From: Giardia intestinalis
Lineage: Eukaryota
Assembly (NCBI GenBank): GCA_000002435.2
Contig: CM018790.1
Direction: 5' to 3' (one strand)
DNA length: 64,000 bases
The notes below the pieces were generated by a model. The model was not told the DNA's origin and did no database searches. It saw only the letters and a program-made list of their open reading frames with translations. A program made the position numbers and the translations under genes. Every line of letters begins with the position of its first letter. The stretch's first letter is position 1. Shown piece after piece: positions 23,042 through 62,485 of this stretch.

Positions 23042-23290
23042 ATGGCCGACGGCGATGACCACACAGCCAGCTCCCCAGCAGTAGCCCCCGCCATCCCACA
23101 ATTCACTCGTAAGAAGCTCCACAGGCGGTTGGATGACGTGCTAGGAAGAGATGCCACAGATACAGTCTACTCTCTCAAGGGTTATCCAGACCTCGCTGTG
23201 AAGGAGATCCCTCTCGACGGCCTGGACAAGGGTAACATGGACGCCATCAGAATAAGATTGACCGGGGTGAGGCTGTCGCCTGCCACCTGA
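23042..23290 (+). pseudogene. 5' fragment (82 codons) of a NEK kinase gene, paralogous to the intact NEK at 53389. It is truncated upstream of GilD/Genie2 copy A.
   Basis: MADGDDHTASSPAVAPAIPQFTRKKLHRRLDDVLGRDATDTVYSLKGYPDLAVKEIPLDGLDKGNMDAI.. aligns with MADGDDHAASSQTSAPAIPQFTIRDLHEWLDSVLNESTMGTVYSLEGYPNLAVKEILLDGLGKSNVDAI.. The 20 bp upstream of the ATG are also shared (tttttgaaacaaacttcATG versus tttttggaaacaaactgtcATG). The kinase domain does not continue. Confidence 0.6.
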
Positions 23291-23865
23291 CTGGTCCCCC
23301 ATGCGAGCCACCGCCGCCCTGGGCACGCTTCTCGCATGCACGGCTGGGACCAGACGTCTGAGAGCCGAATCTCCTCGGATCCCTGCAGAAGAAGCCCGGA
23401 CGAGGGGCTGAGGGCCCCGGTACTCAGCCCAGCAAGCAGCAGACCCGCGACTGCCCGATGAGGGAACCACCGAGGAGGGCTCGCGGGGGCCCGAAGAAGA
23501 GAGTCTAGAGAGCAGCCGATAGAGTGAGCAGGGGGCCCGCACCTCCCTGTCATGGAGAGCGGCGCATGGTGGCAGGCCCCAGTGGCCATTCCTCTAGGAG
23601 ACCACCTGGCCCCACAGGATCGATTACTAACTACACGAACTGGCTCAAGAACGCCGAGGTTCACTCAAGGGGCTGCACCCTTGGGGACCTCCTACGCGAT
23701 CCACAGCACAAGGAGTCGCCACACCTCTTTCACCTCACCAGAGGGCCTCGAGCAGCACGTCTCGGGAACTCTCTCCCGTCCGGGCTCCTTCTGCAGCCTT
23801 GCGACAGACAGACGGTGCCAGCTCACGCGGGCCCTCGCCGTTGCCTGCCGTGATGCCCCGGACCA

Positions 23866-26800
23866 GTGGGTGCCGCTGGGGCCTGCCTGGAAGTATGATC
23901 CAAAGATCTCACAGGTAAGCCTCGCTCAGTCCCTGGCCAGCCCGGAGGCGGGGGCTGGCCACGGGTCGCAGTGATAGCCACAGTGGTGATAGGGAAGAGC
24001 TCCCTCCGTTTGTGGATCTGGGGCCTGTGCGTTCCTCGGCTGTTCTGCGGATGTGCACAGCTGGACTTGAGGCGAAGGAGAGCCCGCGAGGACCAGATCC
24101 GTATTACGAACGCAAGATCATACCTTTGGGCCCCAGAGAGCAAGCCGTGAGTCTCTACTCGGAGGACCACTTCGAAGACGCTTGCCCTCTCGGCAGGACA
24201 CACACGCTGGCTCTGTGGCCTGCCGTGCGAGAGCGCCAAGCAACCAACCGAGCACCTGAGAGAAGCAAACGATGACAGACACAGAGTGCTGGGCGACGAC
24301 AAGCTGATCCTTCCGGCCCACATACCGAACCAGACAGCTGCCATGCTCATCCACCAGGGTGCGCGCATGATCGCGAGCATCGAGCAGGCCGGGACTGGGG
24401 TCGCGCTCCCCGCAATCAGGGGCCTAGACGCCCTGGTGGGAAGCTGCCAGAGGGCCCCTCTGCCAGACAACACCACGGAGCAGTCCCAGAGCAAGGCAGA
24501 CCCAGACCCCGAGAAGGCGAGGCGCCGGATAGCAAACAGGGTGAACAACGCGCTGAGCTTTAATAGCTGCCAGGTCCTCTGTTCCTTGACACACCCACGA
24601 TAGACAAGCCAGAGAAGGCCAAGGCCCCCTCAGCGCGCTACACCCGTGCGTCCCCCCGAAGGCTGCGTTGGCCTTGACTACCCTCCATCGATGAACTCGA
24701 CAGGGCTGGAGTGGCAACCGAGGAGGAAATGAGGAAGGCCCTGTTTGGAACTCTCAACAAGAAGGCCTCGGGCGTGTCTGGTCTCGGGCCGGTCCAGCTC
24801 AGGCGATGAAGCAGAACGACAGCTTTGTGAAATACCTCACGCAGGCGTACAACGAGCTGACCACTCACCCCGAGGCGATACCCGAGGTGACGACCATGTT
24901 CGAGTTCCGGGCGATCCTCATCCCGAAGGAGTCCGACGGATACCCCCGATCGCGATAGGCGGACGGTCACGAACACCTTCCACCGCGTCCTGCTGAAGGG
25001 CTGATCAGGCATGCCAACTACCTCTCATGCGAGCAGATCGCCTTCAAGCAGAACGCATACGCGGTAGGCGTGAGGAGGGCCCACGAGCTCATCAGCGGGC
25101 GGGGATGCACGCCGTCTCCCTCGACACAAAGAACGCCCTCAACTCGCTCCCGAGGGCAGAGGTCGTCAGAGCCCTGAACGAGGCGGGCGTCCCGAAGGTC
25201 CTGGTCGACTACATCAGGAACTTCCTCGACCTGAGGCACAGCAAGGACGTGAAGTGCGAGGTCTGCGGCGTCCCCCAGGGCGACCCGCTCAGCACGTTCC
25301 TCTTCTGCATGGCCACCGAGCGCCTCCTGAGACGCCTCGAGGAGAGGGGCATCGCCTTCCTTGCCTATGCAGACGACATCGTGGGGTTCCACGACGAAGG
25401 GTACCCAGCAGGTGTGATAACACAGCAGACCATGGACCTGACGATCAGGAGCGACAAATGCAAGTCCACCATGGCGGGCGAGGAGGTGACCTTCCTCAAC
25501 CACCCGGCGTCCCCCACTCCTGCTAGTCTCGCCCCAAAGGCCATCGCAGGTGCCGAGACTGCCTTGAAGAAGATCGAGAATGCCCCAATAACCATCCACC
25601 AGAAGCTCATCCTGGTGTCACTCTGTGTGGTCCCGATGGTGAGCTACGCCCCCCTGGTCGAAGTAACATCGGACAAGGCGGACTACGAGGAGTTCGACAG
25701 ACGTCGCACAAGGCATCAGCACTAACCAACAGAAGCTGCGATCGCCTGGTCGACTTCCTAGCGTACCCGAAGGAGAAGGGCGGCCTGGACCTGCTCATGC
25801 CTGGATTCTACCACGACGAGCTGCGGAGGGTATGGGCCTCCTTGGACGTCAACAAGGGGGCCAGAGACCCGGTGGAGCTGTCGGTGGGCGGCCAGGCACT
25901 GCAGGGGAAGGGGCCTACTTCAACCGCCTCCTCACGCGCACACACCAGCTTCCGGACAGAGCGGCGACGTACTGTCTGCAGATGTGCGGCGTGCTGACCG
26001 AGGAGGAAAGGGCCCTGAAGGAGAAGGGCGGCTCGATCATGGCGCAGAAAGAGGCACCTGCCCGGGCTGCCACGAGGCACGACATGATCGTCGCGTGCCT
26101 GTACCTCCGCGTCTCGGGGAAGCTCAGCGCAGAGCTGGAAGTCAAGACCCACAGCCACCTCAGCGACCAGAACCAGAAGCCCGACATCTGGCTCGTCGAC
26201 AAGTGCAAGGCAGTGGACGTGGGTGTCATCCAGCCCCGCCAGATGGATACCACAGCGAGAAGGCCAAGAAGTACAGGGACGGGACGCTCCCGATCATCTA
26301 CGGGACGGACGGATCCCTCCACCCCAGTCCAAGGGGCACCTCAAGGAGCTCCACGTGGACCTCTGTCCGGGCTGCCTTCGCCATCGCCCACATGGCTGCA
26401 GAGGCGAACGAGCACCTGACGGGGCTGATCAGACGGGCCGGGCCGAAAGCCTGGCCACCCAGAGCGACCGTCTCCTGTCATCCTACTTCTGACAACCGAA
26501 TGAGTCCATCCCCGGGACCTGTCGACAACGACCGAGAAGGGGCGCAAGACTGGACACACAACCGAGTTGAATCCCAACCAGAAGAGAAAGCCCCGCTAGC
26601 TGCTGCTGATATACATGGACAGTATTGAGAATGACAACAAAGACCAGAGCTTCACCAACCGTAAAGGGAGAACAAGGAGAGGCACCCTAGTAGACCAGCG
26701 AGCCTGCAGGACGGCGTGATCTCCAAAAGGATCTATGTGCACTCTTAGACCGAGCACACACCCGCAGAACACCCGAGGAACGCAGATAGCTCCTCCCTTC

Positions 26801-26927
26801 CACCACTGTGGTCTTTATATTGATACACGACCAACCCTCGTCTCCGGACATCACCAAAAATTGAGCGGGAATTTACCAGTAAGATCTCTGGACAGCGCCC
26901 GCAGGCAGGCCCCAGCGGCACACCACA
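23866..26927 (+). mobile_element. Degenerate non-LTR retrotransposon, GilD/Genie 2-like, copy A. About 3.06 kb, flanked by ~170-bp terminal inverted repeats.
   Basis: It holds broken RT ORFs with YADD and GVPQGDPLSTFLF motifs (25027–25725). The ends are inverted repeats: the left end reads ccagtgggtgccgctggggcctgcctggaag.. and the right end reads ..caggcaggccccagcggcacaccac, with imperfect similarity extending about 170–200 bp inward. It is near-identical to the copies at 31772–34861 and 43534–46610. Confidence 0.8.
25027..25725 (+). pseudogene. Reverse-transcriptase fragment inside copy A. Frameshifted and degenerate.
   Basis: 232-aa ORF containing ..FLDLRHSKDVKCEVCGVPQGDPLSTFLFCMATERLLRRLEERGIAFLAYADDIVGFHDEGY... 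The flanking reading frames are broken. Confidence 0.75.
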
Positions 26928-27002
26928 CACTCAGTATACCTCTTTGGCAAAAGTATTCTTAATGATATCATTGGTGTTAAGACCGATTGCTCCGGAAATT
27001 CC

Positions 27003-31479: not shown

Positions 31480-31771
31480 AAGACCGCAATTATTTCGTAA
31501 TTTACACTACCCAAGCTACGATGCACTACAGCTATATGGCATAGGCTCCTGCATATTTTCTGTTGCATGCCGTAATGGTGTAGTGTGCAGTACTACACTA
31601 CTCCGGGCTGTTACCGACCAGAGCTCGCCGAGTAGACCAGTCGTCTGAGGCAGAGGCGGACACTTATGTAGGGACCGAGGGCCTTCTGCTCTACAGATGG
31701 ATGGCTATGAGACGCGGCATATCGCCTGCTCGTTGGTAGGGGCTTCTCGACGGCAGGGAACGCTGCTTTCA

Positions 31772-34700
31772 GTGGTGTGCCGCTGGGGCCTGCCTGCGGG
31801 CGCTGTCCAGAGATCTTACTGGTAAATTCCCGCTCAATTTTTGGTGATGTCCGGAGACGAGGGTTGGTCGTGTATCAATATAAAGACCACAGTGGTGGAA
31901 GGGAGGAGCTATCTGCGTTCCTCGGGTGTTCTGCGGGTGTGTGCTCGGTCTAAGAGTGCACATAGATCCTTTTGGAGATCACGCCGTCCTGCAGGCTCGC
32001 TGGTCTACTAGGGTGCCTCTCCTTGTTCTCCCTTTACGGTTGGTGAAGCTCTGGTCTTTGTTGTCATTCTCAATGCTGTCCATACAGATCGGCAGCAGCT
32101 AGCGGGGCTTTCTCTTCTGGTTGGGATTCAACTCGGTTGTGTGTCCAGTCTTTGCCCCTTCTCGGTCGTTGTCGTCGGGTCCCAGGGATGGACTCATTCG
32201 GTTGTCAGAAGTAGGATGACAGGAGGCGGGGTGACCAGGCTTTCGGCCCGGCCCGTCTGATCAGCCCCGTCAGGTCCTCGTTCGCCTCTGCAGCCATGTA
32301 GGCGATGGCGAAGGCAGCCCGGACAGAGGTCCACGTGGAGCTCCTTGAGGTGCCCCTTGGACTGGGGTGGAGGGATCCGTCCGTCCCGTAGATGATCGGG
32401 AGCGTCCCGTCCCTGTACTTCTTGGCCTTCTCGCTGTGGTATCCATCTGGCGGGGCTGGATGACACCCACGTCCACTGCCTTGCACTTGTCGACGAGCCA
32501 GATGTCGGGCTTCTGGTTCTGGTCGCTGAGGTGGCTGTGGGTCTTGACTTCCAGCTCTGCGCTGAGCTTCCCCGAGACGCGGAGGTACAGGCACGCGACG
32601 ATCATGTCGTGCCTCGTGGCAGCCCGGGCAGGTGCCTCTTTCTGCGCCATGATCGAGCCGCCCTTCTCCTTCAGGGCCCTTTCCTCCTCGGTCAGCACGC
32701 CGCACATCTGCAGACAGTACGTCGCCGCTCTGTCCGGAAGCTGGTGTGTGCGCGTGAGGAGGCGGTTGAAGTAGGCCCCTTCCCCTGCAGTGCCTGGCCG
32801 CCCACCGACAGCTCCACCGGGTCTCTGGCCCCCTTGTTGACGTCCAAGGAGGCCCATACCCTCCGCAGCTCGTCGTGGTAGAATCCAGGCATGAGCAGGT
32901 CCAGGCCGCCCTTCTCCTTCGGGTACGCTAGGAAGTCGACCAGGCGATCGCAGCTTCTGTTGGTTAGTGCTGATGCCTTGTGCGACGTCTGTCGAACTCC
33001 TCGTAGTCCGCCTTGTCCGATGTTACTTCGACCAGGGGGGCGTAGCTCACCATCGGGACCACACAGAGTGACACCAGGATGAGCTTCTGGTGGATGGTTA
33101 TTGGGGCATTCTCGATCTTCTTCAAGGCAGTCTCGGCACCTGCGATGGCCTTTGGGGCGAGACTAGCAGGAGTGGGGGACGCCGGGTGGTTGAGGAAGGT
33201 CACCTCCTCGCCCGCCATGGTGGACTTGCATTTGTCGCTCCTGATCGTCAGGTCCATGGTCTGCTGTGTTATCACACCTGCTGGGTACCCTTCGTCGTGG
33301 AACCCCACGATGTCGTCTGCATAGGCAAGGAAGGCGATGCCCCTCTCCTCGAGGCGTCTCAGGAGGCGCTCGGTGGCCATGCAGAAGAGGAACGTGCTGA
33401 GCGGGTCGCCCTGGGGGACGCCGCAGACCTCGCACTTCACGTCCTTGCTGTGCCTCAGGTCGAGGAAGTTCCTGATGTAGTCGACCAGGACCTTCGGGAC
33501 GCCCGCCTCGTTCAGGGCTCTGACGACCTCTGCCCTCGGGAGCGAGTTGAGGGCGTTCTTTGTGTCGAGGGAGACGGCGTGCATCCCCGCCCGCTGATGA
33601 GCTCGTGGGCCCTCCTCACGCCTACCGCGTATGCGTTCTGCTTGAAGGCGATCTGCTCGCATGAGAGGTAGTTGGCATGCCTGATCAGCCCTTCAGCAGG
33701 ACGCGGTGGAAGATGTTCGTGACCGTCCGCCTATCGCGATCGGGGGTATCCGTCGGACTCCTTCGGGATGAGGATCGCCCGGAACTCGAACATGGTCGTC
33801 ACCTCGGGTATCGCCTCGGGGTGAGTGGTCAGCTCGTTGTACGCCTGCGTGAGGTATTTCACAAAGCTGTCGTTCTGCTTCATCGCCTGAGCTGGACCGG
33901 CCCGAGACCAGACACGCCCGAGGCCTTCTTGTTGAGAGTTCCAAACAGGGCCTTCCTCATTTCCTCCTCGGTTGCCACTCCAGCCCTGTCGAGTTCATCG
34001 ATGGAGGGTAGTCAAGGCCAACGCAGCCTTCGGGGGGACGCACGGGTGTAGCGCGCTGAGGGGGCCTTGGCCTTCTCTGGCTTGTCTATCGTGGGTGTGT
34101 CAAGGAACAGAGGACCTGGCAGCCATTAAAGCTCAGCGCGTTGTTCACCCTGTTTGCTATCCGGCGCCTCGCCTTCTCGGGGTCTGGGTCTGCCTTGCTC
34201 TGGGACTGCTCCGTGGTGTTGTCTGGCAGAGGGGCCCTCTGGCAGCTTCCCACCAGGGCGTCTAGGCCCCTGATTGCGGGGAGCGCGACCCCAGTCCCGG
34301 CCTGCTCGATGCTCGCGATCATGCGCGCACCCTGGTGGATGAGCATGGCAGCTGTCTGGTTCGGTATGTGGGCCGGAAGGATCAGCTTGTCGTCGCCCAG
34401 CACTCTGTGTCTGTCATCGTTTGCTTCTCTCAGGTGCTCGGTTGGTTGCTTGGCGCTCTCGCACGGCAGGCCACAGAGCCAGCGTGTGTGTCCTGCCGAG
34501 AGGGCAAGCGTCTTCGAAGTGGTCCTCCGAGTAGAGACTCACGGCTTGCTCTCTGGGGCCCAAAGGTATGATCTTGCGTTCGTAATACGGATCTGGTCCT
34601 CGCGGGCTCTCCTTCGCCTCAAGTCCAGCTGTGCACATCCGCAGAACAGCCGAGGAACGCACAGGCCCCAGATCCACAAACGGAGGGAGCTCTTCCCTAT

Positions 34701-34861
34701 CACCACTGTGGCTATCACTGCGACCCGTGGCCAGCCCCCGCCTCCGGGCTGGCCAGGGACTGAGCGAGGCTTACCTGTGAGATCTTTGGATCATACTTCC
34801 AGGCAGGCCCCAGCGGCACACCACTGGAAGCAACCGGTGGGTGGAGTAAAGAAACTGGTAG
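31772..34861 (-). mobile_element. GilD/Genie 2-like degenerate retrotransposon, copy B, in inverted orientation. About 3.09 kb.
   Basis: Its ORF set mirrors copy A (RT fragment 32964–33662 on the minus strand, identical 232 aa). Termini are cagtggtgtgccgctggggcctgcc at 31772 and its reverse complement at about 34840. It shares the extended 5' terminus 'tttactccacccaccggttgcttccagtgg' with copy C. Confidence 0.8.
32964..33662 (-). pseudogene. RT fragment of copy B, identical in protein to 25027–25725.
   Basis: Identical 232-aa translation with the YADD motif. Confidence 0.75.
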
Positions 34862-35141
34862 AATAATCCGAAGTGCGGATTGCATTTAGAAGGATTGCCG
34901 CCCGCACCTCGTGCTTCTGAGACCACAGATAAGCAAGGACTGTTCTCTGCGGTGGCTTAAAAAGCCTATCTATCATATCAGAGGGCAGCTCGCCATACCT
35001 CGTGATGAACAGCGGAAGGACCTTGTCCCTTTGGTCTGCCGGATACCTTGATCCCAGTGCTACGGCTCCCTGAAAATCTACGAGGTTAAGCGCATTGTAG
35101 AGACTCTCTGCCAGCTCGCCTATGGGGGTCAGAACAGGCAT
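34862..35141 (-). pseudogene. Alpha-giardin (annexin-like) N-terminal fragment of about 93 codons. It ends exactly at the GilD copy B boundary.
   Basis: MPVLTPIGELAESLYNALNLVDFQGAVALGSRYPADQRDKVLPLFITRYGELPSDMIDRLFKPPQRTVLAYLWSQKHEVRAAILLNAIRTSDYSTSFF.. parallels alpha-1 giardin as I recall it (MPKVTDIANELKQAIDAKDE..YGKELPDDIKKALKGG..SDRHEVRAQHIRDALSGRNDHMAFF). Homology stops at the element terminus near 34861. The rest of the gene is absent. Confidence 0.6.
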
Positions 35142-35192
35142 TGACGGACAGTGAAAAGCCGATTATTAATTCACACCTGTTAAATGCACGCT

Positions 35193-36097
35193 TTAGTTTG
35201 CGCCTTCGGTGTCAACACGCCAAAGTGCACAAAGAGCTCGCCCGAGACGGGCGTCGTAGAGGCGCTTAAAGTCTGAGCCGAGCTTGCCGTACTTTTCATA
35301 CGCAAACTTACACTTTAATGCCTTGTCGAACATAAGAGAGGTGATGCGAACCATCCGGTCACTATCGCCCTTTTTGCCAGAGTTGGCGAGGGAGCATAGG
35401 TAGGCAGCGGCATAGCCGGGCTGTAGCAGGTAGAAGTGGGCGGTAAGCAGGGCCTCCATGTCTGTCTTCACGTAGTTGGACGCAATAAGGGTCTCCACCT
35501 CGACGCCGTACTTCTCTGTGAACACCTTATTTATCTTTTTCCACTCTCCCTCTGTGGTGTTGCACAGGAGATCGATCAGGCCATCGGGGTTGCCAGATTC
35601 CAAGTAGCCCATGAGCGCCGCGGCATCCTCACTAATAGCCTTGCGCTCGTATCTGTCGTGTTTGATCCACCCCTTGATGAGTTGCGACCACGGCTCAGAG
35701 CTGCCGATATCACTGAGCAGGGTGTCGTTGGCCACTTTCTGAAATATGCGCGTGTAGTGTGCTCCCATCTCGTACCAGTCTTCTGGGCCGCAAAAGAGGA
35801 CGACGTCTATCAGTGCAGACTTGTTGTTCTTGCCACTGAGGGCCTGGTTGAGTAGGCGTGCACGCACCTCCTGTGCATCTGTCCACGCATACATCAGAAG
35901 CGTTTCAGCAGGCCCTGACTTTAGAGCTTTCTTGATTGCATCAGCAGGGTACATCCCATAGATGGACTTGTAGTTGATTACGACTTGTCTCGGTGCTTCG
36001 ACGCATACTGCGAGGTCAACTGGACAAGAGCGGACTCGTTTTTGCTATCTATAATCTCCCTCAGCTCCGTGGTGAGGTCGGATACAGTGAGGGACAT
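35193..36097 (-). CDS. Alpha-giardin (annexin homologue) with an apparent single-nucleotide frameshift near 35990 to 36000.
   Basis: The body (35193–35954) has alpha-giardin hallmarks ([19 protein letters not shown].., [60 protein letters not shown]). The N-terminus (ATG 36097: [39 protein letters not shown]) is in a different frame and stops. The two segments join into one alpha-giardin if one base is added or removed. Confidence 0.7.
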
Positions 36098-37017
36098 CAG
36101 GTCTAGAGTGAATTTTTGACTGTTTCACTTTGATTTAATGAAAAGGGTTCACAAAAGGATTTTAAAGCGGGCGTTATGAGCGCGAAAGTCGTAAGTATCT
36201 GTGTACAGGTCGGAAAGGTGAACACAGGTTACGATCAGAAAGCGTCGCTCCGTTGCTTCGCTGCTCCGCCGCCCATATCTTACGGTGTGCACAGAATCAA
36301 ATTATTGCCAGGAGAAGGTCTAGATTGCGTTGGCTTTCTTTCTCAGTGGGGGCTGTGCCTCGTAGCTCCTGGCCCGGGGTCAAGGCTGTCTCTATGACGC
36401 TGTCGAAGCAGATGTGGTCTTCTAGGCACCATAAGTAATCTTCGTGCACAAACAGGTCCTCCCCGGCCGGAGAGGCGCTGCTTGGGAGCAAAATGTGCGG
36501 CTGATATGTTGTGCCAGCCATGATTGGTTTGTAATTCTCCGTCCACATTAGTTTTTATGTCATTACTTTTTACTTTTGCATAAAGCAGCAGCTTATTGCA
36601 GCATCAGTAGTCTTGCGCCAATTACATACTAGATTATAGCGTGCTTTTTCATACGTTAGGCATACTTTTGGGCTGCAAGTTAATTGCTGGGCTTAAAGGT
36701 TGACAATGCCAATTTGTGCACCAGATCAGATTGTACTGTGTTCTTGCTTGACAACTGGTCTAATTGTGACTCAAGCAGGGCGTGCCTTATTGCTTCAATC
36801 CGTGGATTTATATTCTTGAATTCATAAAGAGATTCCCTGCACCACAATGCCACACATGAATAGTTGTAACCAGGCAGTGTCGACCCTATCCAACCCCATC
36901 GTTGGCAGTTACCAGTTCAGCAGACTCTTGTGGCTGCTTAGCTTCAAAATTTACAGAGTCTAACAGCAATATGGATGCTCAGGGTTTGTGTTCAACTATC
37001 AAAACAGCGCTAACCCT

Positions 37018-39447
37018 TCAGAGTAGCGTTGCATTTAATGTCCTGGCCATTACGGAGTCGGTGATCACGGCCTGTTGCGCATTGGGGTTACGAGAGAGCG
37101 CATCTTTTCGAACAGCGGTCTTCGCTAGTTCATAAGCAAATAGCACGCTACGGATCGTGATAGGAATACGTCGCTTTTGCCTCTCCAAAAAGAGCTTGTA
37201 TACAGCATACGCCTCATACTCGACGGGATTGGGTTGGAGATAGTATCTCACGCTAACTTGGTGGGCAGCGTTTCGCTTTTCCTCTAGATCGAGGGCAACA
37301 GTGGCGTATTCACAGAGCGCGCAGAGGGCTTGGTCGGGGGTGAGGGATGGAATGTTGCAAACCTGATTGAAAACGCCTGCAAACCCAACGTCGCTCATTG
37401 CTTTCAAGTGCGTAGTAGTGCCGAGGACAACGAGTCGGTGATCAGGCTGGGTTGGTCTACGAATAAGAGCAGTGAGGGTCTGAAGGACAGTACTGGAGAA
37501 TCGGAAGCCAATGGGCGTATACTGTATGATGGACTCTATGCCATCCAGAATTATTAGAGCGCGCGGGACCCTGTAGGCTGCCTCAAAGATTTGACATATA
37601 AGGTCCGCACGTCCATACTCTGTCGAAGTCCTCATAACAAGCTGCTCTGCAGAGATAATTCGAACAAACTCACATCCAAGCCTCTTCGCAATAACAGAGC
37701 ATAGAGCTGTACAACCAGTTCCAGTTGCAGGCGCTGCAAGCAGCATAGCGCCGGTGGTAATACTGCTGTTTAGGACAGCCTCTCCAAAAGACACAGCCTG
37801 CTGGACGACAGACTCGTAGCCGGTAGCCTTGAGGATACCTAGAGGCGCTGCAGCATCTAGCAGCGTGCGGTCTGCCTGGCCGTATCCTGCTTTAACCTCC
37901 CCCAGGGCCCTTTCAAAATCCTTTGCCTCCACTTGGACGCCAATCATGTCCAAATAGAGTAACTTGTTAGGACCCACCGACTTTGTTTTCTCAATAGCAC
38001 GCTCCATGGCAAAGGATGTAGCAGACCTAACAAGACCTGCCAGTTCAGCGCCAGAGAAATTAGGAGTGCACTCAGCGAGGTGTGCGATATTGACATCGCT
38101 TGCAAGAGACTTGGCAGCAACCAGGTTTTTAGTGTGGATCCTCAGAATCTGCTCTCTTCCTCTGCAGTCGGGAAGACCAATCTCCAGGTGCACTTCAAAG
38201 CGGCCGGGACGCATCAGAGCCTCGTCCAGAAGCTCTTTCCTGTTGGTCATACCAACCACGAGCACGTTACCAAGCGCGTCGGGCCCGTCCATCATCGCAA
38301 GTAGCTGGTTAACCAGGCTGTCCATTGTTCCAGTGTTGTCCGACTTGCTGCCTCGTTGCTTGCATACTGCATCAAGCTCGTCGATAATGATTATGTGGAG
38401 CTCGGATGCATTCTCGCGCTCTTTCCACTCCTTAAACGCGTCGCTGAACAGATCGCGCACCTTCTGCTCCGACCCACCAATGTACTTATCTAGAAGCTCT
38501 GAACCGGAAACCATCTTTGGAGGCCGCGCGTTCAGCAACTCGCCAATCTTCCTGGCTGTCAACGTTTTTCCTGTTCCAGGTGGTCCGTACAAAAGGAGAC
38601 CCTTGACGTGTGTCTGGCCAAGCTTTGCTAACTTGTCCGGTGGAAATATTCGTGACATGAACGCGCGCCTAAATATGTCCTTAAACTGCTTATTAAGGCC
38701 CCCTATTCCTAAGCTTTCTGCGTTGATTATGCCCCCCTGCTCATTCTTCTCAGACGTGTCGCTGATGAGATTCATCAGCGCCTTAGCCACCGCAGAGACT
38801 TCTGCGATTGCGTACTCCCCGGTGAGCTCTATTTCCTTTATTTGAGTCTGGAAGATTGTTGCAGTATCGGTACAGAAAGTAAGCGTGGTCTCGTCGCTCA
38901 CTATCTCCCTGTTGTCGCCAAACATGCCAACAACCATCAAGATGAAGAAGTCAGAACCGTCACTAATGGCAAGGTCCTGACCGATAGCGAGAGGGAGGTG
39001 GACAAATTTCTCTGTAATACGGGCGTTGAGATTTGCCGTGCTTATGGTTACCGGCTTTTGTTGTTTAACCATTGGCTTGATCATGAATACCACAGCGATG
39101 GCCCTGGCAGTAGCGTCAAACTTGGACCGTGACACAGTGATGGGAGTATTGTCCAAAGGCGCCCACTTTGTCTCATGAAACGGTGATAGGAGGATCACAC
39201 CCTGAGGAACCTTGGGCACGGGGTCATGGTGGGCTGTAGCTGATCCGATGTCCTTTCCTGGTCTCACTAGGACGACGTGGCCGTTCCTCTCAAGGTAGAC
39301 GTTATCAGACTTCTCGTTGCCAAGAACTGCAGCATAGTCACTAGGACATAAGTATGCACAGTTGGTCTCGAGCAAAGAGGTGCTAGGGTACTTACCGGGT
39401 TTATTAGGGTACTTACCGGCTTTGTAGCTGAATCCCTCCCCAGACAT
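37018..39447 (-). CDS. NSF: N-ethylmaleimide-sensitive factor (NSF), a vesicle-fusion AAA ATPase with two AAA domains.
   Basis: The D1 domain reads LLYGPPGTGKTLTARKIGELLNARPPKMVSGSELLDKYIGGSEQKVRDLFSDA.. followed by ..LHIIIIDELDAVCKQRGS. This matches NSF almost residue for residue as I recall it. The D2 domain carries GAPATGTGCTAL... The likely start is MSGEGF.. at 39447 (AT-rich upstream). The track starts at 39510. Confidence 0.85.
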   Translation of the reverse strand: MSGEGFSYKAGKYPNKPGKYPSTSLLETNCAYLCPSDYAAVLGNEKSDNVYLERNGHVVLVRPGKDIGSATAHHDPVPKVPQGVILLSPFHETKWAPLDNTPITVSRSKFDATARAIAVVFMIKPMVKQQKPVTISTANLNARITEKFVHLPLAIGQDLAISDGSDFFILMVVGMFGDNREIVSDETTLTFCTDTATIFQTQIKEIELTGEYAIAEVSAVAKALMNLISDTSEKNEQGGIINAESLGIGGLNKQFKDIFRRAFMSRIFPPDKLAKLGQTHVKGLLLYGPPGTGKTLTARKIGELLNARPPKMVSGSELLDKYIGGSEQKVRDLFSDAFKEWKERENASELHIIIIDELDAVCKQRGSKSDNTGTMDSLVNQLLAMMDGPDALGNVLVVGMTNRKELLDEALMRPGRFEVHLEIGLPDCRGREQILRIHTKNLVAAKSLASDVNIAHLAECTPNFSGAELAGLVRSATSFAMERAIEKTKSVGPNKLLYLDMIGVQVEAKDFERALGEVKAGYGQADRTLLDAAAPLGILKATGYESVVQQAVSFGEAVLNSSITTGAMLLAAPATGTGCTALCSVIAKRLGCEFVRIISAEQLVMRTSTEYGRADLICQIFEAAYRVPRALIILDGIESIIQYTPIGFRFSSTVLQTLTALIRRPTQPDHRLVVLGTTTHLKAMSDVGFAGVFNQVCNIPSLTPDQALCALCEYATVALDLEEKRNAAHQVSVRYYLQPNPVEYEAYAVYKLFLERQKRRIPITIRSVLFAYELAKTAVRKDALSRNPNAQQAVITDSVMARTLNATLL

Positions 39448-39501
39448 TTGACAACCCTGTTTTTTAATAAGTTCGTTAGTAAAATTGGACAAAGGTGTGG
39501 A

Positions 39502-42500
39502 ATGGAACATCTATCCATCAGGTTCCGTGGTGTTTGCGCAGACACCACGGAAGCACCCATACCCACCAACAAGATTAAGACCCGGAAGTACAATTGGATT
39601 GTTTTTCCCTTTGTTGCTGTCCTCAAACAGTTCCGGCTTTTCTTCAACCAGTTTTTCTTGGTTCTAGCCTTTCTCCAGCTCTATCGCCCTCTTCAAGTTG
39701 GCCTCGCCTTTACATACTACCTTCCTCTATGTTTCATTGTCCTAGTCAGTGTTGGGCGCGAATTGTATGATGAGCTGAATCGAGCAAGACGTGACAAGTC
39801 AGTCAATAGTGGCAAGTACAATATCATTGGCCCCTATGGACTCGTTCCTACTAAGTCCGAAGACATTAAGGTTGGAAGCATCGTGCTTCTAGAGCCAAAT
39901 CAGAGGGTTCCCGCGGACATCGTTATCCTCCAAGCCGTGGGTCATTTGTATGTCAAGACAGTCAATCTGGATGGGGAAACAGATCTAAAGGTCAAGATGC
40001 CTTTGCTTGGTACTGTCGATAGCCCAGAAACACTGGCAGCACCGGACCTGCTCTCTGCAATCCTTGATTCCATCCACGTTACCTATGCCAAGCCATCGGA
40101 TAATCTCTATCACTTTTCCGGGGCTCTTCAAAACGCACAAACTGACGTTGTAATTGGACCCATTACAGTTTCTAATGCAATCTGGATGAATTGCAGTCTT
40201 GCGCGCGGATACGCAACGGGATTGGTTGTCTACACAGGGAAGAGCACACGCATTATGCAGAACCTTGGACGGCGACGGGTTAAACAAGGGTCTCTCGATG
40301 TTGAGCTGAACATGTTTGTCAAGGGCATGTTCATTTTCTGTCTGCTCCTGTCAGCGCTGGTTACATTTGCCACCACAACCAGAAGTATTATCGTCTTTGT
40401 TCGTTGGATCATAATCCTCAGCTCGATTATTCCGTTGGCCATGCAGGTTTCCTATAACTTCGGCAAGCTCGTCATGGCCGGAAGTATTAAGCGGGACGAC
40501 ACCATAAGTGGGATTGAGGTCAGATCAACCGATCTAGCTGAAGAGCTGGGCCGCATTAGCCATGTCTTCAGCGACAAAACAGGGACTCTGACACGGAACG
40601 AGATGTGGCTCCATGAGGTTGTTGGAGAAAAAAGCCCAGCTTGTCTGTCCACGTATTTGATAATTACGCTAGCGAATTGCAGCGCATCGTCCTCTTTGCA
40701 ATCATGACATGTCACAACGTCGAGTTGTTCCGCGAGGATCAGGATTCACCAGAGCAAGATACCGCCCTCAGGCCAAGAAGGAGGAGGCAGCCAAGGACTT
40801 GCTCAGCAAGCACTAGTCAATCATCTGAACAGAGAGTGTCTCAGGAGCCAACTAGCTTTCTCGACGCAAGCATCTCTGAGGCCATCGGGCTCGAAGATCG
40901 ATCTCAGCCTGTGCAGACGCTCTCACTTTCCGATTCACCAACAGAATTGCTCTTTACGCGCCGCGAGATTGACGAAAATCTGATCCTTAATCGATATATT
41001 GGCTCATCTCCCGACGAGGTTGCAATAATAAGAAGCATGCATGCGCGGGGCTATATACTGGAAGAAAAGTCACATAATCTTGTACGCTACACTGCTAGTA
41101 CAGGATCTCAAAAGTTTGAGCTTCTTCATACCTTTCCATTTACATCAGAGACCAAGCGCATGTCTGTCGTCACTCACCACATTGCTACCGGAACCACGTT
41201 TATTTTCGTTAAGGGAGCAGACACAACTATTGAGGCGTCTGCCAAGTACTGTCCATGGCTTCGAAACACCGTCGATGCTTTGGCAGGGCTGGGGCGGAGG
41301 ACCCTCGTGTATGCGTACCGCACGCTCGACGATGACGACCTTAGTAATTTTCATTCATCCATTACTGCTGCGTCTGCAGATCTGGCAAACCGAGATTCCA
41401 TACTCGTGAAATGCGAAGAGACTCTGCTGACAGGGGTGGAGGTCTTGTGTGTAACAGGAATCGAAGATCAGCTCCAGCTCAATGTGAAGGCAACGATCCA
41501 GGATCTGAAAAGAGCAGGAATTAAGTTCTGGATGTTGACCGGAGACAAGGTTGTGACATGTTTGAGCATAGCCCAGTCGTGCGGTTTGCTCCCAAATACA
41601 GCAGTCAAGAAGCATACCAGCAAGCTTCGTGCATCCGAGAATACCGCGCCTTTGACTACTCAGTCGCTGCATCCTGAGGCATGTAAGTATCCAACTACTC
41701 CATCTCTAGACGCTGTATCTATTCCTACAAGATCTGAGATAGAAGTGGGCCAAGAGGATAAGACACCCATGGCAATTCTCCGCAGAGCCATTCGAGATGA
41801 TCCCAATTCCTTCATGAGTGTCACCTCCAGAAGAGAAAAGCGGCTCAATAGAAAGAAACGCCCAGGGTCTCTTGTTTTAGCAAGCACGTGCTATGGGCGC
41901 TTGAGTGAGCATATCTACTTCTTGACAGAGGAGCTCACCCCTGTTGAAATAGTCTCCGTTCTGAAAGAGCTCTCTCAAATGGTTAGCTTCACACATGAGG
42001 TTACCATCGTCATAGACGGATCAGCGCTGGAGAAACTCCTCGGTAATTACCCCGTGGACTACTTCTACACACATGCAATCCATCCCATCACTGGGAACCT
42101 TCTTCCTCTGCACCCGTGTGTAAGGATCTGGAGGAGATTCACCCGCTGGTTACTTATCTACCTCACAGGACACCCCAGACGCGGCAAGGGGAGCCTGGGA
42201 CCAGATGCAGAGACGCGCGAGCTTTTTGCAAGTATTGCTAGCAAGGCAGAAACGGTCCTCTGCTGCCGCTGCACACCAACGCAGAAGGCCCTTGTTGCAG
42301 GTCTCATTTCGGTATACACAGGCAGCAAATCCCTAGGGATAGGCGACGGGGCAAATGACGTCCCCCTGATCGAAACTTGCTCTGTCGGCATAGGACTGCG
42401 GGGCAAGGAGGGCAACCAGGCGGCCAACGCAGCAGACTATGTGATGACAGAATTCCGAGGACTGAAGAAGCTTCTGCTATGGTATGGCAAGTGTAGCTAC

Positions 42501-43526
42501 GTGGGTAGTGCACAGATATGCCAGTTTATCGTCCAGCGCGGGGTTGCGCTATGCTTGCTCCAGATTTGTTTCACCTGCCTTTACTTTTTCACGTCTCTCG
42601 TTCTTCACACCGGGGTACTCCTCTTGGGATACGTGACGCTATTCACAATGTTTCCACCGTTCAACTATTATATTAACGAAGATGTGGACTACCAATTAGT
42701 ACTAAAATACCCAGAAATCTATCGGATTACGTCGCGTGGATCTATTCTGAACCTTAAGACATTTTTTCTCTGGACATTTAGTGGCTTTATTATAGCAGTG
42801 GTAGTGTTTCTTCTCGCATATATCTTCTCGTCGTTTCCCATTTCTGTCAGCGGATTTACGTTTTTCAGTTTCGCCATACTGCTGTGGAGCGAGCTCTGCC
42901 TGATCCTTGTGACTACCCATCGCTTTTCCCTTATGCTCCTCGTTGCCTTGCTTCTCAGCTACTTGATGCTATTCTTGGTTGTTGCCATTTATCCAGGCTC
43001 CTTGACTCGTAGCGAAGTATTTTCTCTAGATATGTTTTGGCGCTTATGCGTAACAAACGCAATATCGGCTGTACTGCTTTTTGTCGGTGAACGCATCGTT
43101 CGCCGGTTCTCTAAGCCAAACGTGGTCCGTATTCTCAGATCAATGAGAAAGCCAGTTTATTGTGCTACATGCAAAGTTCCACGGTGTTGCACGCGTGAGT
43201 CGCAACAGAATGTGGCTGTCATAGGCAAGCCTTCTTTCAACCAAGACCATCCTGGCCTATCTCGCAGCGTCTTACGAGATCGAAGTAAGCCCATGTATAG
43301 AGCAGGCTCTGGGATAAAAACGGAATCCGAATCTGGCTCGGGGTGGCCCTCTGGTATGGTAGTGACGAGCAGATCCTACAGGCGACCCTCTTCATCGAGC
43401 TATGTCCGTCTGCGAGGCATTTACATTCTAAGCTCCACTGGGAGACACTTCTTCAATATGCCGGAGAGTGTTTTCAACATCCTCACACTCAGGATGTGTC
43501 GTCGTTGCGTCAGAATAAATTCTTAG
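39502..43526 (+). CDS. P4-type ATPase (phospholipid flippase). The reading frame is interrupted by a +1/−1 shift at an A6 run near 40626 to 40633.
   Basis: PTNKIKTRKYNWIVFPF.. matches the P4 N-terminal signature. DKTGTLTRNEM is the phosphorylation site. Also present are TGDKVVTCLSIAQSCGLL and GDGANDVPLIE..ADYVMTEFRGLKKLLLWYGKCSY, the P4 'FRxLxxLLLVHG' box. Track ORFs 39448–40707 (frame 1) and 40641–43526 (frame 0) overlap at the homopolymer. The first ATG is at 39502. Confidence 0.8.
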
Positions 43527-43533
43527 ATTCGGA

Positions 43534-46500
43534 TTTACTCCACCCACCGGTTGCTTCCAGTGGTGTGCCGCTGGGGCCTGCCTGGAAGTATGATCCAAAG
43601 ATCTCACAGGTAAGCCTCGCTCAGTCCCTGGCCAGCCCGGAGGCGGGGGCTGGCCACGGGTCGCAGTGATAGCCACAGTGGTGATAGGGAAGAGCTCCCT
43701 CCGTTTGTGGATCTGGGGCCTGTGCGTTCCTCGGCTGTTCTGCGGATGTGCACAGCTGGACTTGAGGCGAAGGAGAGCCCGCGAGGACCAGATCCGTATT
43801 ACGAACGCAAGATCATACCTTTGGGCCCCAGAGAGCAAGCCGTGAGTCTCTACTCGGAGGACCACTTCGAAGACGCTTGCCCTCTCGGCAGGACACACAC
43901 GCTGGCTCTGTGGCCTGCCGTGCGAGAGCGCCAAGCAACCAACCGAGCACCTGAGAGAAGCAAACGATGACAGACACAGAGTGCTGGGCGACGACAAGCT
44001 GATCCTTCCGGCCCACATACCGAACCAGACAGCTGCCATGCTCATCCACCAGGGTGCGCGCATGATCGCGAGCATCGAGCAGGCCGGGACTGGGGTCGCG
44101 CTCCCCGCAATCAGGGGCCTAGACGCCCTGGTGGGAAGCTGCCAGAGGGCCCCTCTGCCAGACAACACCACGGAGCAGTCCCAGAGCAAGGCAGACCCAG
44201 ACCCCGAGAAGGCGAGGCGCCGGATAGCAAACAGGGTGAACAACGCGCTGAGCTTTAATGGCTGCCAGGTCCTCTGTTCCTTGACACACCCACGATAGAC
44301 AAGCCAGAGAAGGCCAAGGCCCCCTCAGCGCGCTACACCCGTGCGTCCCCCCGAAGGCTGCGTTGGCCTTGACTACCCTCCATCGATGAACTCGACAGGG
44401 CTGGAGTGGCAACCGAGGAGGAAATGAGGAAGGCCCTGTTTGGAACTCTCAACAAGAAGGCCTCGGGCGTGTCTGGTCTCGGGCCGGTCCAGCTCAGGCG
44501 ATGAAGCAGAACGACAGCTTTGTGAAATACCTCACGCAGGCGTACAACGAGCTGACCACTCACCCCGAGGCGATACCCGAGGTGACGACCATGTTCGAGT
44601 TCCGGGCGATCCTCATCCCGAAGGAGTCCGACGGATACCCCCGATCGCGATAGGCGGACGGTCACGAACATCTTCCACCGCGTCCTGCTGAAGGGCTGAT
44701 CAGGCATGCCAACTACCTCTCATGCGAGCAGATCGCCTTCAAGCAGAACGCATACGCGGTAGGCGTGAGGAGGGCCCACGAGCTCATCAGCGGGCGGGGA
44801 TGCACGCCGTCTCCCTCGACACAAAGAACGCCCTCAACTCGCTCCCGAGGGCAGAGGTCGTCAGAGCCCTGAACGAGGCGGGCGTCCCGAAGGTCCTGGT
44901 CGACTACATCAGGAACTTCCTCGACCTGAGGCACAGCAAGGACGTGAAGTGCGAGGTCTGCGGCGTCCCCCAGGGCGACCCGCTCAGCACGTTCCTCTTC
45001 TGCATGGCCACCGAGCGCCTCCTGAGACGCCTCGAGGAGAGGGGCATCGCCTTCCTTGCCTATGCAGACGACATCGTGGGGTTCCACGACGAAGGGTACC
45101 CAGCAGGTGTGATAACACAGCAGACCATGGACCTGACGATCAGGAGCGACAAATGCAAGTCCACCATGGCGGGCGAGGAGGTGACCTTCCTCAACCACCC
45201 GGCGTCCCCCACTCCTGCTAGTCTCGCCCCAAAGGCCATCGCAGGTGCCGAGACTGCCTTGAAGAAGATCGAGAATGCCCCAATAACCATCCACCAGAAG
45301 CTCATCCTGGTGTCACTCTGTGTGGTCCCGATGGTGAGCTACGCCCCCCTGGTCGAAGTAACATCGGACAAGGCGGACTACGAGGAGTTCGACAGACGTC
45401 GCACAAGGCATCAGCACTAACCAACAGAAGCTGCGATCGCCTGGTCGACTTCCTAGCGTACCCGAAGGAGAAGGGCGGCCTGGACCTGCTCATGCCTGGA
45501 TTCTACCACGACGAGCTGCGGAGGGTATGGGCCTCCTTGGACGTCAACAAGGGGGCCAGAGACCCGGTGGAGCTGTCGGTGGGCGGCCAGGCACTGCAGG
45601 GGAAGGGGCCTACTTCAACCGCCTCCTCACGCGCACACACCAGCTTCCGGACAGAGCGGCGACGTACTGTCTGCAGATGTGCGGCGTGCTGACCGAGGAG
45701 GAAAGGGCCCTGAAGGAGAAGGGCGGCTCGATCATGGCGCAGAAAGAGGCACCTGCCCGGGCTGCCACGAGGCACGACATGATCGTCGCGTGCCTGTACC
45801 TCCGCGTCTCGGGGAAGCTCAGCGCAGAGCTGGAAGTCAAGACCCACAGCCACCTCAGCGACCAGAACCAGAAGCCCGACATCTGGCTCGTCGACAAGTG
45901 CAAGGCAGTGGACGTGGGTGTCATCCAGCCCCGCCAGATGGATACCACAGCGAGAAGGCCAAGAAGTACAGGGACGGGACGCTCCCGATCATCTACGGGA
46001 CGGACGGATCCCTCCACCCCAGTCCAAGGGGCACCTCAAGGAGCTCCACGTGGACCTCTGTCCGGGCTGCCTTCGCCATCGCCTACATGGCTGCAGAGGC
46101 GAACGAGGACCTGACGGGGCTGATCAGACGGGCCGGGCCGAAAGCCTGGTCACCCCGCCTCCTGTCATCCTACTTCTGACAACCGAATGAGTCCATCCCT
46201 GGGACCCGACGACAACGACCGAGAAGGGGCAAAGACTGGACACACAATCGAGTTGAATCCCAACCAGAAGAGAAAGCCCGCTAGCTGCTGCCGATCTGTA
46301 TGGACAGCATTGAGAATGACAACAAAGACCAGAGCTTCACCAACCGTAAAGGGAGAACAAGGAGAGGCACCCTAGTAGACCAGCGAGCCTGCAGGACGGC
46401 GTGATCTCCAAAAGGACCGATGTGCACACCCAGTCTGAGTGTACTCCTGTAGAATAGCCGAGGAACGCAATAGCTTCTCCCTACAACCGATGTGATTATC

Positions 46501-46610
46501 GTTACGGCCCGTGACCAACCCTCGTCTCCGGACATCGCCAAAAATTGAGCGGGAATTTACTCGCGAGATTTGCGGACAGCGCCCGCAGGCGAGGGCCCAG
46601 CGGCACACAC
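43534..46610 (+). mobile_element. GilD/Genie 2-like degenerate retrotransposon, copy C. About 3.08 kb. It starts 8 bp after the flippase stop codon.
   Basis: Its ORF set is identical to A and B (RT fragment 44722–45420). It sits at a constant 19,695-bp offset from copy A. Its right terminus (..gcgagggcccagcggcacaca) is more diverged than the others. Confidence 0.8.
44722..45420 (+). pseudogene. RT fragment of copy C.
   Basis: Identical 232-aa translation with YADD. Confidence 0.75.
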
Positions 46611-49600
46611 TAAAAAACTTGAGTCAGCCGTTGCACCCGCCGCCCCCAGGACAAAGCTTCTGCACGCATGGCCAGCTGCCCTTGTCAGTCCAGCCTACTG
46701 GTCCAATAGTCTGATGACCCTCTGCCCCGCTCTCTGGTGTATGATATCTCACAACTGCTCATGGGAGTAAGCAGCATGAAAGAGGAATTGCATGTGTGGA
46801 CATTGTGCTATGCTCGTCTCAGAGGACCGAGGTGTCTAACTACAGAGCGCTGCACCGAGCCACATGTTCCATTACCCTGCACTGATGGATGCCTTCATCA
46901 CCGTGCTTGTTGCATTTAGGCTGTGCCTGCTCAACAGACTGAACATGCACTGCATCGACCCTATTTGACGTTGCATCCCGCATGACGTCCAATGGTAAAG
47001 TGGACATCGTACTGCCTGAGCTACCTGTTATCAGCGGAGAATGGCACCAGAGACGCTTCTACGTATCCACACAGTCATTATGCCTGCTTCTCCATCAGCT
47101 GTAGCGATAGCTGTATACCCGGAAGGTCCTGCAGAGCGCCCCATTGCCTTTCAAGATGAGACGTCTGCACCTAAAGCTAAAAACAGAAACCCGTGCACCA
47201 GGTGTCACGAGCCTAGTGTGCTGACCGGCCTAGATCACAATGCACCCGTCAAAGGCCTGTGCATACGTTTGGATGCTCACCGCTAGTGGCAGACGGGCCT
47301 GCGAGAAAGCTCGTCTCTGGCCGCGCTCGCCCCATAACACCTAGTCCTTGGCGACATGCTTCGGTGCGGGAGAATGCTAGGTAGACGTGCAGAGGGCCAC
47401 CTGTAGACGGCCATTTCTGGAGGACCGATTCGCATGGAGAGCGTAGGGGTGACCAGCAGATCAGTGAGGTACGACTGGGACTGGAGAGGCTGGCTGCCGG
47501 TCTGGATTGCAGCGGGGGCACCTGTGTGCCTCTCTGGCCCGCGAGTGTGGAAGGGTCTATCTACCGACAGGCCGAAGACCGCATTTTGATTTTATGCGTT
47601 TACAGCAGCACATTTGTTGGGGGCTGTTCTATCGAGAGGCGAGGATGTTCGCTTTCCCCGTATAGGGCGGGGGTCGATTGGATTGGAGAGGTATACTGTG
47701 CAGGCCAGTATCAGTCGACGCGGCTAGATCTGCAGTGCTACGCGGATGGTTACCTCCATCTTCGGCCAAAGGGTTGGTACACGCATTGCGTAGGTTGGAT
47801 TACTCATCACCCAGGGTAGCATGGCTCGCCCTTGTTCTCTGCTTGCCTACCTCGTGCAACCACTGCTGATAGCCTTCCCAGGTCAGCATGCGGATGCCTC
47901 TACGGTCCCGTAAAGGTATGCATCGTGCAGGCGGCCACCACAGGCCGTCCCGTCTACCAAGGAAAAGGGTCAATCGGTTACTGCATGGGGGTCCTCTGTG
48001 CGCCTTGCATAATCCACCAGGTCTTGTGCTCCTCACCACTCCCTCGCAAGCCCCGTCTGGCTCTCCCCGCCGCTGGAGTCCACGCGCATGTCGTTACTGC
48101 CAAGCACTCTGGCCCAATGGGTCACCTAGAGCGTCGGGTTCTTTGCCCTACGCAGTGAGTGTGCTCGACGTAGGAGATGCACAATCAATAGCAGCCTTCT
48201 CGGCTTCTGGCCTGGATAATGCTATTGTTGCTTCTCATCCGATCAGCTGGCACGAGGGCCCAGCTCATGGCCAACAAGCTGAGAAGGGTCGTTCCGGGAG
48301 GTCTTCAAGCACAGCAGTACCTCGCCAACGGGTAGCTAACAGTGACCGTGGCGCGTACCTCCGCCAAGCCACGGCATCCTGGGGCACGAAATGGGGCCCT
48401 GCCATCCTGCGGCCCTGCTGATTCCCCGGACAGCAGGGATCGGAGCAGCCCAGCTAGCGCCTCTGGGTCTCCGCTTGTCCTCGTTGCCTGAGGTGTGCTT
48501 GGCTCCAGAGACTCAGAAGGGCGCTGTACCATGATCGGGCCTGCATGCCTCAGCCAGGCAGGGCTACCCTCTTGGAGACTGCGCGAGGTAGCCACACATC
48601 CCGGGGACCTGTGGGGAACACCGCAGCCCAATGGAACCCTTACCTGTCGAATGCAGGCCGTAATTGCGGGCTCACCGGTGCAGGACTTCTTAGAATAACC
48701 GGTCGACTGTAGAGCCCCCCACTCGGTCCAGATGAGCGACATCACTCTCATCGATGGGCTACATTGCACGCCGGACAGTCCCACATGCGAGCAAGGGTCA
48801 TCCAGCCCGCAGCAATGAGCATTGGTAGATGTCCTTCACAGCAGCCGCTTTCCTATTGAGATTCGCCAGCCACTGAGGCCCAGGCCGGCCTCCTGCAGGA
48901 TCATTGGTAGGATCGTGCCCGATGCATGTCTGTGGCACTCCCCTCAAGATGCGTGCTGCTGGACTTTCGCTTCCTGCACTGGCCTGCGAACATCGAGCCC
49001 TTCTAGCGGGGCCACACGGAGATCACAAGGATATGGCGTCCTCAGAGACTATCCGGCTTCTGAGCCACACACCGGGGCCCACTTCTCGCAGCGGCATCAC
49101 AGAGAGGCGTATAGAGCCATACCACGCCCTCTGCCAGGCGACATGGTGCACGGATCAAGAGGTAGACGCTCGCACCGGTTGGCCCGAAGGCAGCGATTAG
49201 ATGTTGCTCGATGCCCTTATCAGCGGATGGGCGCCCAGCTACCCTGGTACCCACACGAGGCCACGCTGATCATGGGTCTGGTCACTGGCTATCAAACCAG
49301 CACAGTCTCCCTGGATCTCGTCTCTCATGAAGGCAGCCTAACACAGAGAGCCCTGTGTCACTCACACCAACAGGCCAAGGTACCCCGGGCCCGGGTGCTT
49401 CCGATGATAGAGCGGTGGCACCAGAGTGACTCAGGGAGTGATGGGGTCCTCTCCATCAGCTCGGGAGACAGCGCGGTCTGGGCAGTGCTCCCCCTTGGCT
49501 AGGCACGGGAGGACTGACCCGTCTCTGAGTTCCACTTAGCACTCTGTCACGCAATGAAGAACCTTAGTGGCACTTAGTACAAGAGATCAGGGCTATACAC

Positions 49601-56397: not shown

Positions 56398-56652
56398 GCC
56401 ACGCAGCAGGACTCCGGGGTCAGCAGCCTCTAGCGCGGGAGCGAACGCGGCTCAGGGAAGTCGGCAAGCCGGCTCCGTAACCTCGGGAAAAGGAGTGGCT
56501 CTGACGGCGCGCCGGGTCAGAACTGGAACGGACGCGGGGATCCCGACTGTTTACTAGAAACACAGCGTCGCGAGGGCCGCACCCGGCGCTGGCGCGACGT
56601 GATTTCTGCCCAGTGCCACGACCGTCACCGTGAAGCGATCCGCCGAAGCCCT

Positions 56653-56704
<52 letters not shown>

Positions 56705-62483: not shown

Positions 62484-62485
62484 GG

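Follow-up and report, generated by a model that had tools for sequence, protein, structure and literature searches.

A decaying alpha-giardin pair at the probable edge of a segmental duplication in a subtelomeric patchwork of Giardia intestinalis WB

In a 64,000-nucleotide (nt) stretch of Giardia intestinalis DNA (contig CM018790.1; the whole stretch is called the window below), two broken alpha-giardin genes lie head-to-tail on the minus strand, the first a frameshifted copy of alpha-9 giardin and the second the beginning of alpha-13 giardin, which ends beside a copy of the retroelement GilD. This pair very likely forms the centromere-side edge, now decaying, of a segmental duplication of 8.67 kb within the subtelomeric patchwork of a WB chromosome, the intact parent of which lies on another chromosome record. 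The alpha-giardin remnants are ordinary in kind, being pseudogenised passengers of a subtelomeric segmental duplication, and they are of little import for alpha-giardin biology, since alpha-9 and alpha-13 are both intact elsewhere in WB.

The duplicated block and its parent locus

Two related contigs, L021 and L024, align to window positions 34856-43526 and nowhere else (Table 1). The first is contiguous and intact, carrying NSF (803 amino acids, aa), an 83-aa open reading frame (ORF), alpha-9, alpha-13, a coiled-coil gene and a RING gene, and each of its proteins either is one of the WB entries KAE8302580-85 or falls in a cluster with one. On the flippase side, the homology of L024, which carries the native flippase, ends exactly at the flippase stop codon, 43526. 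The alpha-9, alpha-13, coiled-coil, RING, NSF (803 aa) and flippase (1341 aa) genes are WB entries KAE8302579-85, the flippase being KAE8302579, on a record of 1,973,847 bp, and it is on this record that the intact WB alpha-9 (GL50803_103437, XP_001704289) and alpha-13 (GL50803_1076, XP_001704288) are found. Several ORFs of the window are exact WB proteins of a different record, of 1,539,535 bp: dynein heavy chain KAE8302548, a NEK protein, KAE8302550, NSF KAE8302554, NEK KAE8302556 and the reverse transcriptase (RT) KAE8302557, a GilM-type RT/endonuclease; GL50803_00113673 is one of these exact matches.

Of the genes in the duplicate, the NSF paralogue and the annotated 83-aa ORF alone are intact. 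The flippase copy is split by a one-base deletion, a split that is also present in the 2007 annotation (XP_001703952, XP_001703950) and in 401-aa ORFs of the Logan short-read assemblies, and the alpha-9 and alpha-13 remnants carry no protein annotation. DH seems to have two unbroken flippase genes. The remainder of alpha-13, like the coiled-coil and RING genes next in line at the parent locus, has no match anywhere in the 64-kb window.

The duplicate was copied as DNA, since promoters, intergenic DNA and genes in divergent orientation are all part of it. That the window pair might instead be the only alpha-9 and alpha-13 of the cell (unitary pseudogenes), or RNA-derived processed copies, has next to no probability: the broken reading frames fit either idea and nothing more does, whereas the intact WB genes on the other record contradict the first, and the second is contradicted both by this content of the duplicate and by its edges, neither of which has a poly(A) or other A-tract. 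Three further candidates were rejected. A displaced 1.7-kb fragment confined to 34856-36597 is ruled out by homology that continues through NSF (L013, L021); a 5' transduction or RT template-switch chimera is ruled out by the intergenic DNA and the genes on both strands of the block; and the healing of a broken chromosome by a retroelement array at its end is ruled out by the lack of telomere repeats in the window and by the nature of the adjacent GilD copy B, a single dispersed copy of 3 kb.

Table 1. Features of the window discussed in the text, in window positions
Feature	Position	Strand	Details
GilD copy A, without first 23 nt	23863..26926	+	3' end abuts 5'-truncated ankyrin gene copy 26930-29027
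GilD copy B, dead non-LTR (non-long-terminal-repeat) element	31764..34850	-	5' end faces alpha-13 fragment
Read-through tail of chimeric 116-aa ORF	34791..34855	-	filler GTTTC (34855-34851), then 16 codons and stop from GilD B 5' end
Alpha-13 giardin stump, codons 1-95 (of 345) and one further base	34856..35141	-	identical to P0018; V68I relative to WB alpha-13 (P0020)
Segmental duplicate of native flippase, NSF, 83-aa ORF, alpha-9 and alpha-13 block; 8,671 bp	34856..43526		L021 aligns to 39552-34856, L024 to 39293-43526
Alpha-9 giardin copy, remaining 262 codons, shifted frame	35193..35983	-	Pfam ANXE1_4th and PDB alpha-1 giardin matches
Alpha-9 giardin pseudogene copy, codons 1-39, original frame, premature TAA	35978..36097	-	N-terminus as WB alpha-9 (P0005) except R13K, E14K
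Alpha-9 frameshift site, one G missing	35983..35984	-	native GACAAGGTCG, window GACAAGTCG; alignments to L001, L002, L021
83-aa hypothetical ORF GL50803_0092957 (KAE8302553)	36297..36548	-	duplicate of GL50803_0011632
Intact NSF paralogue KAE8302554 (XP_001703953), 809 aa	37018..39447	-	old 830-aa model starts 39510
Flippase (phospholipid-transporting ATPase IIB) pseudogene copy	39502..43526	+	A7 to A6 deletion, about 40634; split into 401 + 940 aa
7-nt filler ATTCGGA (43527-43533), then GilD copy C from 43534	43527..46615	+	5' end faces block
VSP gene	49983-52640	-	C-terminus CRGKA; about 1.6 kb of internal tandem repeats, 111-bp register, 50851-52471
Large-subunit (LSU) rRNA fragment, 359 bp	56438-56796	+	Rfam RF02543, model positions 1891-2388; directly before GilM array
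GilM-type tandem array, period 5,477 bp	57024-64000		RT/endonuclease ORF 59154-62483

Broken reading frames of the alpha-9 and alpha-13 copies

An earlier note, made from the sequence alone, had described two head-to-tail alpha-giardin genes on the minus strand, the upstream one with 39 codons that run in another frame into a stop ahead of an annexin-like body, and this description was confirmed. The first 39 codons of the alpha-9 copy end at a TAA (36097-35978), and the body matches Pfam ANXE1_4th at E=8.8e-29, above the cutoff; the generic Annexin profile reaches 18.2 bits, under its cutoff of 25. When frame-corrected, the 301-aa product finds alpha-1 giardin in the PDB at 5e-63, with matches to the alpha-1, alpha-11 and alpha-14 giardins spanning 5e-63 to 8e-17 and one to annexin VI at 2e-5. 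It falls in the same 90% cluster as the alpha-9 giardin of WB, DH, GS and P15 and is identical to WB alpha-9 at 299 of 301 residues, R13K and E14K being the two differences; from 35942 to its stop at 35193, the copy has no nucleotide difference from the native gene. In the promoter region, the native alpha-9 has 12 extra bases directly before the ATG (TCTAGGCTCGAT, or TCTAGACCTGAT in another lineage), which the window copy lacks (36106, minus strand).

A single-base indel had been predicted near 35995; the lesion is indeed of one base, and its true site is about 11 nt away. Alignment with the intact-gene contigs places it between 35984 and 35983, where GG has become G at the junction of GACAAG and TCG, after codon 38. 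The longest ORF with an ATG in the shifted frame runs from 35954 to 35193 and encodes 253 aa. The same G is deleted in contigs L003-L012.

Whether the copy was a pseudogene or an assembly error had been left undecided. The frameshift is a real lesion and not an assembly error because the identical 253-aa ORF recurs in many independent Illumina assemblies, being indexed in 28 blocks of the Logan collection (24 contigs of which were read). One of these contigs, L003, is 100% identical to window 36597-34856 over 1,742 bp, deletion included. An error of long-read assembly or polishing, with the gene intact in the cell, would agree with the PacBio homopolymer frameshifts that Xu et al. 2020 reported in the WB draft and with the type of the lesions, GG to G in alpha-9 and A7 to A6 in the flippase. 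Such an error is extremely improbable, however, given the recurrence of the ORF and of the deletion in Illumina-based data, the correction of indels in the WB reference assembly with Illumina reads (PMC7000408), and the unbroken state of the other long ORFs of the window, which exceed 35 kb in total and include one of 4,773 aa.

A spacer of 51 nt separates the alpha-9 copy from the ORF that starts at 35141 and ends at 34791. This ORF has 95 alpha-13 codons followed by 21 unrelated codons from a short filler and GilD, and 94 of the 95 are identical to WB alpha-13, the one substitution being V68I (window position 34940). When searched alone, the 116-aa ORF has no Pfam match and no homologue, and its identity as alpha-13 was recognised by setting it beside the intact gene (345 aa) of related contigs. 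The earlier note had the coding homology running up to the GilD B terminus at 34861 and never resuming. That it ends at the element without resuming was borne out, and the boundary itself was refined: homology to every native contig stops at 34856, GilD copy B begins at 34850, and 5 nt of filler lie between the two. Neither copy thus retains an intact reading frame with all four repeats, alpha-9 by virtue of its premature stop and alpha-13 with 95 of 345 codons. The implied loss of two of the 21 alpha-giardins did not hold, as intact alpha-9 and alpha-13 are present elsewhere in the genome and therefore no functional gene has been lost.

Probable paralogue collapse, uneven divergence and the second NSF gene

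Across 21 assemblage AI-type contigs, polymorphic columns occur at 56/kb over 36597-35943, at 0.9/kb from 35942 to the breakpoint and at 0.29/kb over the 6.9 kb beyond. Every variable site is biallelic, with one window-type and one native-type allele, and the two types are combined as mosaics. Most of the contigs start at 36597, where the copies grow too different to collapse. The alpha-13 variant P0018, present in 34 contigs, differs from WB alpha-13 only by V68I, which is the paralogue difference at 34940. The mosaic contigs are therefore best read as collapsed paralogues, and both copies seem to be present in most assemblage AI genomes. Logan contigs L003-L012 and L022 show the pseudogene frameshift and the V68 allele at what appears to be the native alpha-9/alpha-13 locus; these too are probably collapsed paralogues. 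Collapse of this kind in short-read assemblies might be taken for gene loss or for polymorphism in an antigen family, with the frameshift in 28 blocks and V68I in 34 contigs. Reads that fall in the alpha-9 body or in the first 285 nt of alpha-13 are not uniquely assignable, which is relevant to short-read variant calling.

Several points weigh against the proposed duplication and its history. The purely window-type contigs (L003, L008, L010 and L022) could come from isolates in which the native locus itself bears the frameshift. All short-read contigs run unbroken through 34856 into an intact alpha-13, and the junction-spanning ORFs, of 116 aa and 241 aa, have no record in the short-read collection. 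The placement of both loci near chromosome ends comes partly from accession numbering, and the evidence for gene conversion, considered below, consists of uneven divergence. The unbroken contigs probably result from simplification of the assembly graph where a short link leads into a high-copy repeat; support for the alpha-13/GilD junction comes from the long-read assembly and from the 2007 annotation, whose gene order matches. It might be argued from the short-read data that the junction is an assembly mis-join at a 3-kb repeat and that the truncated copy does not exist. This is very unlikely on three grounds: first, a second copy is needed to produce the biallelic mosaics, including that at 34940, which lies only 84 nt from the junction. 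Second, the assembly used PacBio reads together with optical maps. Third, the 2007 annotation is independent and has the layout of the window, with the flippase pieces, NSF, the 83-aa ORF and the GilD RT ORF in the same order.

The divergence between the duplicate and its parent is uneven. For NSF, the window and native genes differ at about 7% of nucleotides, with a synonymous divergence (dS) of 0.138, a ratio of nonsynonymous to synonymous divergence (dN/dS) of 0.35 and 90.4% aa identity; for the flippase, the corresponding figures are 1.4%, a dS of 0.037 and a dN/dS of 0.17. Intergenic DNA and the first 155 nt of alpha-9 diverge by 3-6%, and the alpha-9 body together with the alpha-13 start has one single-nucleotide difference in 1,087 nt. 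All alpha-9 differences are within those first 155 nt, and the frameshift lies 41 nt inside this older zone. The sites that tell the two paralogues apart are 36060, 36058, 36014, 35987, the deletion at 35984, 35982, 35976 and 35943, with 34940 in alpha-13. Relative to the native paralogue, the window NSF also has a 21-bp in-frame insertion (39384-39404, minus strand), which repeats KYPNKPG near the N-terminus, and a 3-bp indel near 39160.

From sequence comparison, this pattern suggests later gene conversion of the flanks. In the proposed history, an old duplication would have been followed by gene conversion with the parent locus over the flanks while NSF was kept distinct. Conversion may have held the alpha-9 body and the start of alpha-13 near-identical to the functional genes, and the flippase too, though less recently, and the NSF paralogue would have been kept under purifying selection. 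Both NSF paralogues (GL50803_114776 and GL50803_112681) are reported in a preprint to be transcribed and translated and to be present in five clinical samples, and the same preprint gives their identity as 92.7% at the nucleotide level and 89.7% at the protein level (10.1101/2024.08.20.608744). The block explains the origin of this unusual second NSF gene of Giardia and provides a dated example of uneven divergence across a single duplicated block, a pattern compatible with gene conversion to either side of a gene that selection has kept distinct.

GilD ends, the subtelomeric setting and known systems

GilD is a 'dead' family of non-LTR retrotransposons in Giardia, and its inverted repeats reportedly reach up to about 172 bp. 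The three GilD-type copies of the window are 3.06-3.09 kb long and 97.7-99.2% identical by self-BLAST. Each matches RVT_1 as a fragment only (E=4e-16, profile positions 66-201), the RT fragment is 33% identical to residues 503-704 of the GilM RT, and the reading frames are broken identically in copies A, B and C. The termini are inverted, with 32 of 33 positions matching at the ends and a further imperfect inverted match of about 155 bp (72%). The identification as GilD in the earlier note is in keeping with the size of about 3.08 kb, the degenerate RT, the inverted termini and the VSP-rich subtelomeric setting; the repeat thus fits the dead GilD (Genie 2) family by its features. Over GilD positions 50-2500 (2.45 kb), the three copies have two differing sites, and the last 550 nt are strongly diverged. 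Copy B is a mosaic that switches from C-type to A-type near position 2750 and has only two private differences, and GilD copies therefore exchange sequence.

Copies B and C, mutually inverted, bracket the block and present the same 5' terminal nucleotide to it, after 5 and 7 unmatched bases respectively. The duplicate runs out at codon 95 of alpha-13 and at the flippase stop, and each edge is joined through 5-7 unmatched bases to the terminal nucleotide of a GilD copy; the junctions would be either 5'-end joins of full-length GilD copies or the product of end-joining at GilD ends. The shared terminal base and the filler favour a retroelement-type 5' join, and the absence of target resumption at either edge argues against a simple insertion. 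A search beyond the ends of copies B and C yielded no target-site duplication, and the sequence that flanks B on its 3' side has no relation to alpha-13. The earlier proposal of truncation by element insertion, or by deletion at the element boundary, therefore stands in so far as the gene ends at a GilD terminus; simple insertion was not demonstrated, both on account of that 3' flank and with the far edge of the block abutting a GilD 5' end in like manner.

A more elaborate route by insertion can be considered, in which GilD retrotransposed into a complete duplicate alpha-13 and later recombination or deletion between GilD copies removed the 3' part, such that the truncation post-dates the duplication. 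This is possible though rather unlikely. The common terminal nucleotide after 5-7 unmatched bases is typical of non-LTR 5' junctions, and the mosaic copy B attests to ectopic exchange among GilD copies. However, alpha-13 does not resume past the 3' end of B and there is no target-site duplication; the same broken ORFs occur in all three copies, although conversion could have spread the lesions; and two separate events of insertion plus loss would be needed, falling exactly at both edges of the block.

The arrangement of the three copies raises a broader idea, which must be regarded as doubtful: GilD ends may be seams, used repeatedly, along which Giardia subtelomeres are pieced together from parts of core loci, the block having delivered a second NSF that was then retained and diverged, with ongoing conversion moving variants into antigen genes. 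The basis for this is that three GilD copies lie within 23 kb, each separated by 3-7 filler bases from a copied block of genes, that two of the blocks end exactly at stop codons, and that sequence is exchanged among the copies. If true, conversion from the dead passengers could carry variants, even the frameshift, into the live alpha-9 and alpha-13.

Next to copy A, a copy of the ankyrin repeat protein 1 gene (26930-29027, plus strand; KAE8302551, 576 aa) is missing codons 1-255 of its 953-aa paralogue; the homology sets in 3 nt past the 3' end of GilD A and runs as far as the stop codon. Two of four copied-block edges thus coincide with stop codons to the nucleotide (flippase, 43526; ankyrin, 29027), with no poly(A) traces. 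Roughly 600 nt upstream of the 5' end of copy A, a 225-bp fragment (23025-23249, plus strand) shares 79% identity with the 5' portion of the NEK kinase gene at 53371-53596.

To the right of the block, the window holds a VSP gene, a NEK/ankyrin kinase gene, an LSU rRNA fragment and a GilM array, and together these mark a subtelomere, the rRNA fragment directly before the array being the mark of a chromosome end; the layout of this end of the window matches descriptions of Giardia subtelomeres (PMC10999387). The exact product of the VSP gene is not in the protein collection searched. The period of the array compares with a GilM length of 5,474 bp (Xu et al.).

No searchable paper was found that describes the block, the alpha-giardin remnants or the GilD-bracketed edges, and each component can nevertheless be set beside a known system. 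The repeats resemble GilD (Genie 2) in their length, degenerate RT fragment, presence in several copies, imperfect inverted termini and adjacency to VSP genes, the family being found in gene-poor regions next to VSP genes (PMC2861651). The native alpha-9 (GL50803_103437) and alpha-13 (GL50803_1076) giardins are annexin-like proteins of the cytoskeleton, and the window pair has the gene order, the spacer length and the upstream NSF neighbour of their locus, from which it differs in that both copies are unannotated, one having a 1-bp deletion and the other reading into a retroelement after 95 of 345 codons. The preprint on the NSF paralogues is silent on genomic context; here the second NSF is seen to be the only sizeable survivor in a duplicated block. 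Finally, multi-gene segmental duplications account for 6.9% of the WB genome and reach up to 20 kb (Xu et al. 2020), and the present case is likewise a multi-gene block, of 8.7 kb, copied to another chromosome into a region rich in repeats and gene families.

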